A stretch of 30,887 bases of DNA from Escherichia coli. GTDB taxonomy: Bacteria > Pseudomonadota > Gammaproteobacteria > Enterobacterales > Enterobacteriaceae. The stretch lies in the NCBI RefSeq assembly GCF_003334335.1, contig NZ_QOWQ01000049.1. One strand, written 5' to 3'. Made by a program: the position numbers and the translations under genes. Below the pieces are notes generated by a model, which saw only the letters and a program-made list of their open reading frames with translations, was not told where the DNA came from and ran no database searches. Positions within the stretch are counted from its first letter, which is position 1, and each line of letters begins with the position of its first letter. This document shows positions 11,623 to 26,994 of the stretch, one piece after another.

Positions 11623-11650
11623 GCCCCATTTGCGGGGCTAATTTCTTGTC
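11623..11650 (+). terminator. Intrinsic terminator downstream of rsd
   Basis: 5-bp GC stem GCCCC/GGGGC with ATTTGC loop, followed by the T-rich tract TAATTTCTTGTC. Confidence 0.6.
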
Positions 11651-11735
11651 GGAGTGCCTTAACTGGCTGAGACCGTTTATTCGGGATCCGCGGAACCTGA
11701 TCAGGCTAATACCTGCGAAGGGAACAAGAGTTAAT
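11651..11735 (+). promoter_or_regulatory. TPP riboswitch (THI element) in the thiC leader
   Basis: Contains the conserved thi-box core CTGAGA (11667..11672) and the downstream AACCTGATCAGGCTAATACCTGCGAAGGGAAC segment, about 90 nt upstream of the thiC ATG. Confidence 0.85.
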
Positions 11736-11817
11736 CTGCTATCGCATCGCCCCTGCGGCGATCGTCTCTTGCTTCATCCGTCGTCTGACAAGCCACGTCC
11801 TTAACTTTTTGGAATGA

Positions 11818-15284: not shown

Positions 15285-16055
15285 ATGTTACGTATTGCGG
15301 ACAAAACGTTTGATTCACATCTGTTTACCGGCACAGGGAAATTCGCTTCTTCACAACTGATGGTGGAGGCGATCCGCGCTTCCGGCAGCCAGCTGGTGAC
15401 ACTGGCGATGAAACGTGTCGACTTGCGCCAGCACAACGACGCTATCCTCGAACCGCTTATCGCGGCGGGTGTGACCCTGCTGCCAAATACATCCGGGGCG
15501 AAAACAGCGGAAGAAGCCATTTTCGCCGCCCATCTGGCTCGTGAAGCGTTAGGCACAAACTGGTTAAAATTAGAGATTCACCCTGACGCCCGCTGGCTGT
15601 TGCCCGATCCCATCGAAACCCTGAAAGCCGCCGAAACGCTGGTACAACAGGGATTTGTCGTGCTGCCTTACTGCGGGGCCGATCCGGTATTGTGTAAACG
15701 TCTGGAAGAAGTCGGCTGTGCAGCGGTGATGCCGCTCGGCGCGCCGATTGGCTCGAATCAGGGACTGGAAACCCGCGCCATGCTGGAGATTATTATCCAG
15801 CAGGCCACAGTGCCGGTGGTTGTCGATGCTGGCATCGGCGTTCCCAGCCATGCCGCGCAGGCGCTGGAAATGGGGGCCGACGCGGTGTTAGTGAATACGG
15901 CGATTGCCGTCGCGGACGATCCCGTCAACATGGCGAAGGCATTTCGTCTGGCGGTAGAAGCAGGCCTACTGGCACGTCAGTCCGGACCGGGCAGCCGCAG
16001 TTATTTTGCTCATGCCACCAGCCCGCTGACCGGATTTCTGGAGGCATCGGCATGA
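15285..16055 (+). CDS. thiG: Thiazole synthase
   Basis: True start [20 protein letters not shown] at 15285 (256 aa), one nt after the thiS stop. The 342-aa track ORF is an upstream over-extension through thiF and thiS. Confidence 0.93.
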
Positions 16056-17185
16056 AAACCTTCAGCGATCGCTGGCGACAACTGGACTGGGACGACATCC
16101 GCCTGCGTATCAACGGCAAAACGGCTGCTGACGTAGAGCGGGCGCTAAATGCCTCGCAACTCACCCGCGACGACATGATGGCGCTGTTATCGCCTGCCGC
16201 CAGTGGCTATCTGGAACAACTGGCACAACGGGCGCAGCGTCTGACCCGTCAGCGATTTGGCAACACAGTTAGTTTCTACGTCCCGCTTTATCTTTCCAAT
16301 CTTTGCGCTAACGACTGCACGTACTGTGGATTTTCCATGAGTAATCGCATCAAGCGCAAAACGCTGGATGAAGCGGATATTGCCAGGGAAAGTGCCGCTA
16401 TACGGGAGATGGGCTTTGAACATCTGCTGTTAGTCACTGGTGAACATCAGGCGAAAGTGGGGATGGATTACTTTCGTCGTCATCTCCCTGCCCTTCGTGA
16501 ACAGTTCTCTTCACTACAGATGGAAGTGCAACCGCTGGCGGAGACGGAATACGCCGAGTTAAAGCAACTTGGTCTGGATGGCGTGATGGTTTATCAGGAG
16601 ACATATCACGAGGCGACTTATGCCCGCCATCATCTGAAAGGCAAAAAACAGGACTTCTTCTGGCGGCTGGAAACGCCGGATCGGCTGGGGCGTGCGGGGA
16701 TTGATAAGATAGGCCTCGGCGCGCTAATTGGCCTTTCCGACAACTGGCGCGTTGACAGCTATATGGTTGCCGAACATTTGCTATGGCTGCAACAGCATTA
16801 CTGGCAAAGCCGTTACTCTGTCTCCTTTCCGCGCCTGCGCCCGTGTACTGGCGGCATTGAGCCTGCGTCGATTATGGATGAACGCCAGTTAGTGCAAACC
16901 ATCTGCGCCTTCCGACTGCTTGCACCGGAGATTGAACTGTCACTCTCCACGCGGGAATCACCGTGGTTTCGCGATCGCGTTATTCCGCTGGCGATCAATA
17001 ACGTCAGCGCCTTCTCGAAAACGCAGCCAGGTGGCTATGCCGATAATCACCCCGAGTTGGAACAGTTCTCACCGCACGACGATCGCAGACCGGAAGCGGT
17101 TGCTGCCGCGTTAACCGCTCAGGGTTTGCAGCCGGTATGGAAAGACTGGGACAGCTATCTGGGACGCGCCTCGCAAAGACTATGA
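16052..17185 (+). CDS. thiH: 2-iminoacetate synthase (tyrosine lyase, radical SAM)
   Basis: 377-codon ORF with the radical-SAM CANDCTYC motif; ATGA overlap with the thiG stop. Confidence 0.95.
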
Positions 17186-17439
17186 GACGGAATGTAAGAA
17201 CGTAAATTTATTCCGAGCCGCTACGGAAGATGAAAAACGCAAGGTTGTTGAAAGCGTTGTGTTTTTTTATGGTAGTGCCGTCAGCAGGAATGTTGTCCAG
17301 GGCGAAAAGCTTCTTCCTCGTTTCGCCCTGCCTTTCTTAAAAATTCCGTAATGCAAAGTCTGAAGCCATCGCCTGTTGAGCAATGAAAGAGATCTGATTG
17401 TAAGAGAGTAAATACTCAACTATGATAGAGACGAAAATA

Positions 17440-17601
17440 AGAACACATGTTCTCATCTTCCAGGATGCAGCAGACTGAAGAAATTCAGACATCCCGCAAC
17501 CTGCGATTATCGCAAGGTCAAGGCAAAGTCCGGTAATGGCGTTCTGAATACCAGAGATAATTCTCTGGCGAAACCCACCTTAAGGTGGGTTTTGTTATTT
17601 T
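17440..17601 (+). ncRNA. sroH: Candidate small RNA at the 3' end of the thi transcript region (position matches the sRNA sroH reported between thiH and htrC in E. coli K-12); 5' end not determinable from sequence
   Basis: Two consecutive hairpins (CCAGAGA-TAAT-TCTCTGG at 17551..17568, then AAACCCACC-TTAA-GGTGGGTTT at 17571..17592) followed by TTTTGTTATTTT; the 3' end is well defined. The 5' boundary and the identity are from memory of the K-12 locus. Confidence 0.4.
17571..17601 (+). terminator. Strong intrinsic terminator (9-bp perfect stem, TTAA loop, T-rich tail)
   Basis: AAACCCACC TTAA GGTGGGTTT followed by TGTTATTTT, read directly. It is a good terminator only on the plus strand; on the minus strand the hairpin is followed by CGCC. 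Confidence 0.8.
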
Positions 17602-18134
17602 GAGGGCTGAGGAAGCTGCTTATTTCTCAATAAGTTGTAGGCAATGGTGAAAAATTTCACTGATTTACCTTTCTGTTTTTCAGAAATGGGATAAGCGCTA
17701 GTTACATGCAAACGGAGTTTTTTCTTTTCCCTGAAAGCCCTGAACGCAACAAAGTAAAATGCCTTATCTCCTCCGTCTAAGTCCACCTCAATCACGGCAT
17801 AGCTACCATACCCGGCATGAATAACGTTGCTTTCTGGCAGCGCCAAAATAGTTCTTTTTAAGTGTGTGCGCGCTAAGTTATAACGGTGCTGGCAGAAGGG
17901 ACGAGATTCTTTAGGCGCGTGGTACATTAACGATTGTTTTTCTTCGTTCGTCTGATGTTCATAATCTTTTGTGAAGCAGTGAAGAGAGTAGGTAACCCAA
18001 AAGCGATACTCTAAAGGCTCTTTGCCCTCATGATGCTGAACGTAGACAGCCTGATGAGCATCAAGAAATGATAAATCACGAATATCACCATCCGGATGTC
18101 CAAAAGGTCGCCACTTTTCCACTTCCTGTTTCAT
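17595..18134 (-). CDS. htrC: Heat-shock protein HtrC (YjaZ)
   Basis: 179-codon ORF in the conserved position between rpoC and thiH; translation (MKQEVEKWRPFGHPDGDIRDL...) recalled as YjaZ/HtrC. Identity is by synteny and memory, not domain logic. Confidence 0.8.
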   Translation of the reverse strand: MKQEVEKWRPFGHPDGDIRDLSFLDAHQAVYVQHHEGKEPLEYRFWVTYSLHCFTKDYEHQTNEEKQSLMYHAPKESRPFCQHRYNLARTHLKRTILALPESNVIHAGYGSYAVIEVDLDGGDKAFYFVAFRAFREKKKLRLHVTSAYPISEKQKGKSVKFFTIAYNLLRNKQLPQPSK

Positions 18135-18300
18135 TCTCGTTCCTTAAGAAAGTTACACAGGAATAGTATCGAATCCTTGCCGAGTTTGACTCAATTAGTT
18201 CAGTCAGTTTCAGGATATTAGTCATCTCTACATTGATTATGAGTATTCAGAAATTCCTTAAATATTCTGACAAATGCTCTTTCCCTAAACTCCCCCCATA

Positions 18301-18325
18301 AAAAAACCCGCCGAAGCGGGTTTTT
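18301..18325 (-). terminator. rpoC intrinsic terminator (hairpin flanked by A-run and T-run, potentially bidirectional)
   Basis: AAAAAACCCGC CGAA GCGGGTTTTT about 25 nt downstream of the rpoC stop; on the minus strand the stem is followed by UUUUUUAU. Confidence 0.85.
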
Positions 18326-18346
18326 ACGTTATTTGCGGATTAACGA

Positions 18347-26920: not shown

Positions 26921-26954
26921 GCGCAAAAAGGCTGGTGACTAAAAAGTCACCAGC
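26921..26954 (-). terminator. rplL-rpoB intergenic attenuator (partial terminator)
   Basis: Perfect 9-bp inverted repeat GCTGGTGAC-TAAAAA-GTCACCAGC (26931..26954) which on the minus strand is followed by CUUUUUGCGCU; lies 41 to 64 nt downstream of the rplL stop. Confidence 0.75.
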
Positions 26955-26994
26955 CATCAGCCTGATTTCTCAGGCTGCAACCGGAAGGGTTGGC

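Follow-up and report, generated by a model that had tools for sequence, protein, structure and literature searches.

An 18-codon reading frame across the promoter and 5' end of the Escherichia coli small RNA gene sroH is very probably a chance occurrence

Does the 18-codon open reading frame (ORF) between thiH and yjaZ of Escherichia coli encode a small protein, act as a leader peptide, or mean nothing? The frame lies in a 30,887-nt stretch of contig NZ_QOWQ01000049.1, hereafter the window. Its ORFs and a megablast comparison with 5,426 complete E. coli genomes reveal thiH, yjaZ and rpoC, and Rfam adds sroH, which makes the window the thiH-sroH-yjaZ-rpoC segment of an E. coli K-12-type chromosome. 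An earlier reading of the letters alone (the sequence-only reading) had placed the ORF inside a candidate small RNA (sRNA) and left all three options standing. Its description of the ORF agrees with the sequence letter for letter, in that an ATG at 17422-17424 opens the peptide MIETKIRTHVLIFQDAAD, an in-frame TGA at 17476-17478 closes it, and an AAGAGAG tract (17402-17408) lies upstream with its final base 13 nt ahead of the ATG. The analysis below indicates that this 57-nt frame has, with high probability, arisen by chance where the promoter of a known sRNA gene, sroH, adjoins the first part of its RNA. The elements concerned are the following, in window coordinates.

17422-17478, + strand: the 18-codon ORF (MIETKIRTHVLIFQDAAD, then stop), from translation; judged a chance ORF
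17398-17403, + strand: -35 hexamer TTGTAA (4/6 consensus bases) of the predicted sroH promoter, from a promoter scan and our own scan
17421-17426, + strand: -10 hexamer TATGAT (5/6 consensus bases) of the same predicted promoter, from the same two scans
17433-17593, + strand: SroH sRNA (b4691), Rfam RF00372, 201.1 bits, E = 1e-49, model positions 1-161
17433-17461, + strand: lineage-specific 5' leader hairpin of SroH, carrying ORF codons 4-13, from alignment and fold
17462-17593, + strand: conserved structured core of SroH, from RNAalifold and covariation

The match to RF00372 is full length (161/161 positions) and far exceeds the 80-bit threshold of the family. Both Rfam and the K-12 annotation set the 5' end of SroH at G17433, 11 nt downstream of the ORF ATG. 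K-12 RefSeq gives sroH at 4190327-4190487 on the minus strand, with yjaZ on one side and thiH on the other (NC_000913.3; the K-12 coordinate is 4207920 minus the window position, which puts the ORF ATG at 4190498, minus strand), and in the K-12 annotation and the window ORFs alike the gene sits between thiH and yjaZ in the orientation of thiH. The placement of the ORF inside the sRNA thus holds for 46 of its 57 nt, which fall in the 5' part of SroH at the K-12 position, whereas the ATG and the first 11 nt lie upstream of 17433, in the predicted promoter and outside the RNA. Because the annotated 5' end lies at 17433, 11 nt past the ATG, the main SroH transcript would lack the ORF start codon, and from 17433 on no ATG, GTG or TTG is found in the ORF frame. 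A transcription start site for sroH in both E. coli and K. pneumoniae is recorded in a supplementary table of Kim et al. (2012), as a tick mark with no coordinate, and Maes et al. (2017) use the wording 'SroH primary transcript'. We infer that most SroH RNA of this strain begins at 17433.

The start codon is itself part of the predicted promoter. A promoter scan of 17100-17700 returned a single sigma-70-type site, composed of TTGTAA, a 17-nt spacer and TATGAT, and the latter ends 6 nt before G17433, at the distance expected of a start site and with the geometry of a sigma-70 promoter. The ORF ATG constitutes bases 2-4 of the TATGAT hexamer, while the AAGAGAG tract begins within TTGTAA, sharing its final two bases, and runs on into the start of the spacer. 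As a Shine-Dalgarno (SD) sequence this tract is both weak and misplaced: its SD-like duplex leaves 12-13 nt to the ATG and has an energy of -4.1 kcal/mol, compared with -9.3 kcal/mol for thiH and -6.1 kcal/mol for yjaZ. Taken together, the explanation that we favor is that TTGTAA, the 17-nt spacer and TATGAT act as a sigma-70 promoter, so that the putative SD tract would be its -35/spacer region and transcription of SroH would begin at G17433, giving a primary RNA with no ATG or other canonical start in that frame; the ORF region would then serve as DNA and as RNA, not as coding sequence. Leaderless translation from a transcription start at 17422 was also considered and rejected, the -10 element that it requires (TAAATA, 17409-17414) matching the consensus at only 3/6 positions and lacking the final T.

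A frame of this length is no more than chance yields in the spacer. When the 409-nt spacer between thiH and yjaZ was shuffled 2000 times with its dinucleotide composition kept, an ATG-initiated ORF of at least 18 codons was present on a given strand in 86% of shuffles (mean 1.6), and the native spacer carries three such ORFs on the + strand. The 18-aa peptide has a single hydrophobic stretch (VLIF) and does not resemble a type I toxin, for which a hydrophobic transmembrane peptide of ~20-60 aa would be looked for. No coding sequence is annotated beneath the ORF region among the RefSeq E. coli rows inspected.

Comparison with homologues shows the frame to be unconserved. We assembled 22 distinct SroH sequences, ranging from enterobacteria to a cyanobacterium, 21 of which enter the structure alignment. 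Their conserved part begins with (A)AGGAUGCAGCAGAC, at about window position 17462; upstream of this point, in the promoter and a leader of 25-33 nt, the sequences are unrelated to one another. In the frame of the ORF, 13 of the 22 homologues have no ATG-initiated ORF owing to in-frame stops and one has a 5-codon ORF only, and the other eight carry ORFs of 18-54 codons whose N-termini are unrelated. With near-identical lineages collapsed, ATG-initiated ORFs reach the core in 5, 5 and 3 of 18 lineages for the three frames, and these sequences give no sign of a preferred frame. The stop codon is likewise not conserved, the hairpin arm that contains it alternating between CUGAA and CUGG, and in the divergent E. 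coli allele E69 the two differences within the ORF are both non-synonymous (E3Q and Q14L).

What is conserved instead is the structure of the RNA. The single E. coli sequence of SroH already folds with a z-score of -6.05, and RNAalifold applied to the 21 aligned sequences gives a core of 34 pairs in six helices, with 98.3% of cells paired and compensatory changes at 14 pairs. The helices that can be placed on the window are these.

17463-17467 with 17490-17494, + strand: helix GGAUG / CAUCC of the SroH core
17475-17479 with 17484-17488, + strand: inner hairpin CUGAA / UUCAG of the SroH core
around 17551-17568, + strand: hairpin of the SroH core
17569-17594, + strand: terminator stem of the SroH core

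The core further contains a long-range CGC/GCG helix, in which G-C and A-U pairs replace one another. The covariation score of the alignment is 0.222, against 0.093 in column shuffles (none of 500 reach 0.222), and controls in which the pairing partners were slid by 1-3 columns score at most 0.05. The structure is specific to the SroH strand, since 27 cells are G.U and none is A.C. The Rfam annotation of sroH holds the terminator helix only, and four more helices are backed here by compensatory changes. The ORF meets this structure at its 3' end: codons 14-18 and the TGA fall inside the GGAUG/CAUCC and CUGAA/UUCAG helices, and they are conserved because the RNA structure fixes the invariant GGAUGCAGCAGAC...CAUCC helices. 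Codons 4-13 would on this account be nothing other than the 5' hairpin, which is lineage-variable, its form being kept among homologues and its sequence not. Relatives therefore lose the frame (13 of 22 lack an ATG-initiated ORF) while the RNA structure stays (14 covarying pairs), the very pattern that the sequence-only reading had named as telling against its ORF, and its third option, that the frame is nothing, is supported by the promoter overlap, the chance expectation and the lack of frame conservation.

Promoter-like hexamers accompany the RNA in the homologues as well, with TATTAT, TATAAT or TAATAT at positions that are comparable or closer to the core. Five plasmid-type copies (from Serratia, Enterobacter, Klebsiella, a 2.4-kb E. 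coli plasmid and S. fonticola; L007, L008, L010, L011 and L029) have a strong -10 element (TATAAT, GATAAT, TAGAAT or TACAAT) 14 nt before the core and a -35 element 17 nt upstream of it. Judged by these elements, the RNA in the five copies probably starts at the core and lacks the 25-33 nt leader of the E. coli chromosomal and P1-like copies. With the strong -10 so close to the core, the counterpart of the ORF in these copies would be promoter DNA.

Some observations weigh against a chance origin. Firstly, the exact ORF is listed in Table S4 of Fesenko et al. (2024; PMC11188072), a smORFer re-analysis of retapamulin (MG1655, BL21) and Onc112 (MG1655) data, where the BL21 row (NC_012971.2, 4098495-4098549, minus strand) gives a translation initiation site (TIS) count of 18 with a TIS fraction of 1 and a ribosome-protected fragment (RPF) count of 13 with an RPF fraction of 0.74. 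These 18 TIS and 13 ribosome-protected reads mean that the cells contain some RNA bearing the ATG and that ribosomes can initiate on it. Secondly, the ORF is intact in essentially all of the 3,737 complete E. coli genomes that carry the sroH-yjaZ island described below. Thirdly, P1-like phage-plasmid copies of sroH (L003, L012, L014) also carry an ORF of 18 codons in this frame, MTVKEWYMLNQTFEDAAD. The second point is uninformative on selection because the 101-nt ORF region is near-identical across genomes (at least 99% identity in 3,736 of the 3,737). As to the third, the ATG of the MTVKEWYMLNQTFEDAAD ORF abuts a -10 hexamer (TATTAT), its N-terminus is unrelated to that of MIETKIRTHVLIFQDAAD, and the equal length of 18 codons follows from the promoter-to-core spacing that the copies share.

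The BL21 initiation signal is weak and confined to a single dataset of the three, and the ORF shows no mark of purifying selection. The same row assigns the ORF to the class 'Intergenic' (no predicted coding potential), with a cluster size of 1385, a non-synonymous rate (dN) of 0.038 and a synonymous rate (dS) of 0, and its counts are far under those of most known small proteins in the table (PMC11188072). In the searched text of Table S4, where the MG1655 rows precede those of BL21, the ORF has no MG1655 row from retapamulin or from Onc112, by peptide or by coordinates, and the supplements of Schumacher (2023) contain no match for it. Fesenko et al. (PMC11188072) themselves remark that known small proteins give much higher TIS signals than such ORFs do, and that many signals of the latter 'might result from spurious translation'. 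The present ORF resembles this 'Intergenic' class of small ORFs (smORFs) in its low TIS count in one strain, its lack of coding potential and a dN/dS that is not below 1, and differs from it in nothing of substance; what our analysis adds is the position of the ATG inside a -10 box. The BL21 signal is accordingly best read as spurious, although this reading of it is ours.

The reads and the intact frame are what would speak for a genuine but young, E. coli-specific micro-protein, made in small amounts either from RNA that reads through from thiH or from RNA with an unmapped start further upstream, with the sroH locus then having a dual function. In BL21 the RPFs cover 74% of the ORF. Its absence from the MG1655 data of the same pipeline, the low counts, the coding-potential class given by the Fesenko authors, the dN of 0.038 with a dS of 0, the ATG that forms part of the -10 box and precedes the annotated start of SroH, the weak and misplaced SD and the loss of the frame in homologues all argue the other way and render the small-protein option very unlikely. 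A further obstacle is that two hairpins separate thiH from the ATG.

16052-17185, + strand: thiH, last gene of the thiCEFSGH operon
17233-17270, + strand: first terminator-like hairpin after thiH (A-tract, stem, U7), from folding
17297-17330, + strand: second terminator-like hairpin after thiH, a 10-bp GC-rich stem and then CCUUUCUU, from folding
17595-18134, - strand: yjaZ (htrC), convergent with sroH; NCBIfam NF007263, 430 bits

Read-through from thiH is the only possible source of transcripts that carry the ORF ATG. The two hairpins are probably the terminators of the thi operon, a function suggested by their form; a consensus terminator scan flagged neither of them (17233-17342). In the alignment with E. 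coli strains devoid of sroH-yjaZ (e.g. IAI39), homology stops at 17342/17343, just past the second hairpin, consistent with this hairpin being the end of the thi operon. Read-through past the hairpins would presumably be rare, so that under the chance-ORF explanation initiation at the ATG would need this rare RNA and would amount to low-level, unselected (pervasive) translation; translation of the ORF, if any, is at most weak and spurious.

Very short ORFs that overlap structured, base-pairing sRNAs do occur, as in the dual-function sRNAs SgrS/SgrT, Spot 42/SpfP and AzuCR, the protein encoded by Spot 42 being only 15 aa long (PMC8916003). In those cases, however, the start codon lies within the mature RNA and translation has been demonstrated, whereas the present ORF has its start codon upstream of the annotated 5' end, a poor SD and an unconserved frame. 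A dual function could instead reside in another short ORF of SroH, and two candidates are present in the window.

17447-17536, + strand: 29-codon ORF within SroH, whose internal Met codon is the invariant AUG in GGAUG
17337-17492, - strand: 51-codon antisense ORF with a hydrophobic stretch, among the window ORFs

The AUG in GGAUG is invariant in 21/21 aligned sequences, which might be taken as the mark of a coding element, but this invariance is explained by the pairing of GGAUG with CAUCC. Across homologues the stop of the 29-codon frame falls anywhere from 17 to 95 nt past the anchor, leaving 5 to ~31 codons from the invariant AUG, and its SD pairing is only -2.9 kcal/mol, while the antisense frame, which starts at the complement of CAT, varies from 3 to 55 codons; we regard a coding role for either as highly improbable. 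A leader peptide controlling a downstream gene or a terminator by attenuation has almost no chance of being correct, because yjaZ, the next gene, is convergent (SroH ends at 17593 in an intrinsic terminator, 1 nt before its stop codon) and leaves no co-directional gene to control, so that, despite a short size and adjoining stable hairpins that recall the 14-30 codons and nearby hairpins of thrL, hisL and pheL and are all that favors it, the ORF lacks the regulatory codon run of those leaders (MIETKIRTHVLIFQDAAD has no repeated codon class either) as well as their alternative terminator/antiterminator, its start codon would lie outside the main transcript, and its frame is unconserved.

The homology break after the second thiH hairpin marks one edge of an accessory island comprising sroH and yjaZ (~17343-18340), which is present in 3,737 of the 5,426 complete E. 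coli genomes and missing from ~31%. IAI39 has a DUF4867 gene and a large hypothetical gene in place of sroH-yjaZ, and the strains without the island, including IAI39, are B2/D strains (Skippington & Ragan, 2012). Elsewhere in the window, Rfam detects a thiamine pyrophosphate (TPP) riboswitch at 11640-11740 on the + strand, upstream of the thi operon where it is expected, and a 74.5-bit match to 'Pseudomonas sRNA P26' at 26929-26990 on the - strand, which from its coordinates we take to be the rplL-rpoB spacer.

SroH, which is said to have been first reported in the 2003 RNomics screen of Vogel and colleagues, is not confined to the E. coli chromosome. By blastn it occurs on 104 plasmids of Serratia, Enterobacter, Klebsiella, Citrobacter and others, and a DNA pattern search finds it on three P1-like contigs of IMG/VR; a blastn search of a phage collection gave no match to the sroH region. 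On contigs encoding YjaZ homologues, Rfam sroH matches of 63-112 bits lie directly after the yjaZ stop in Salmonella, Erwinia, Aeromonas, Oceanimonas, Thiolinea, Serratia fonticola and the cyanobacterium Waterburya. (A contig scan by exact YjaZ peptide words proved too strict and returned one locus, E. coli E69, and was supplemented with the plasmid matches and the YjaZ-encoding contigs.) In the window the yjaZ stop codon is 1 nt past the SroH 3' end, and at every yjaZ locus examined, representing ~17 distinct lineages, an SroH-type RNA lies convergently 1 to ~20 nt after the yjaZ stop. The plasmids with yjaZ-SroH are P1-like phage-plasmids, IncF plasmids, other large plasmids and small ColRNAI/ColE1-type plasmids. 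In Pantoea the SroH copy adjoins a yjaZ pseudogene remnant, and the copy on the 2.4-kb plasmid adjoins a truncated yjaZ. The only copies without yjaZ are those of the IncFII Enterobacter type, where a relE/relB type II toxin-antitoxin operon occupies the same convergent position.

772-1529 of locus L008, Enterobacter cloacae IncFII plasmid pCRE37_1: orphan SroH-type RNA with relBE; similar plasmid matches are H45-H53

YjaZ (PF27200, NF007263) retains 47-78% identity across the examined taxa, with invariant His, Lys and Arg residues, including H52, K56, H106, K138, R141 and H143. Its AlphaFold model is confident (pLDDT, the predicted local distance difference test, of 88.9) and has no significant Foldseek match in the PDB; in AFDB50 the matches are mostly to its own uncharacterised family, along with a few inconsistently named rows. 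Duplexes between SroH and the yjaZ 5' region, as computed with RNAduplex, are no better than those of shuffles at 9/10 scored loci (z -0.2 to +2.0), the full-length duplexes being unrealistic; at the remaining locus (L019) z is -3.1. Among the papers searched, none connects SroH with YjaZ/HtrC.

Convergent cis-antisense pairs that overlap at their 3' ends are known from GadY/gadX and from B. subtilis type I toxin-antitoxin pairs such as txpA/RatA. The sroH gene is similarly convergent with a protein gene, their 3' ends abutting, and the arrangement is kept at every yjaZ locus examined. In contrast to such pairs, the deeply conserved internal structure of SroH covaries and falls outside all coding sequence, and a simple antisense RNA has no need of such a structure. 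YjaZ also differs from txpA-type toxins in being a 179-aa soluble protein and not a small hydrophobic one, and sroH and yjaZ are known here as abutting genes. It is conceivable, if on balance doubtful, that SroH and YjaZ together make up a two-gene module that moves horizontally, SroH being its RNA half and not a stand-alone E. coli sRNA, and we offer this module as a lead, not as a result.

For the annotation of E. coli, the most probable consequence is that a false small-ORF candidate is removed, the apparent ORF within an sRNA being a promoter -10 box that happens to hold an ATG, and the single weak retapamulin signal published for it gains a context. The case also calls for caution in calling smORFs near sRNA genes, where TATGAT-type -10 boxes place start codons 7-12 nt ahead of the 5' ends of transcripts. 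The deeply conserved, covarying structure of SroH, together with its spread alongside yjaZ on mobile elements across phyla, offers a concrete, testable lead for both orphan genes.
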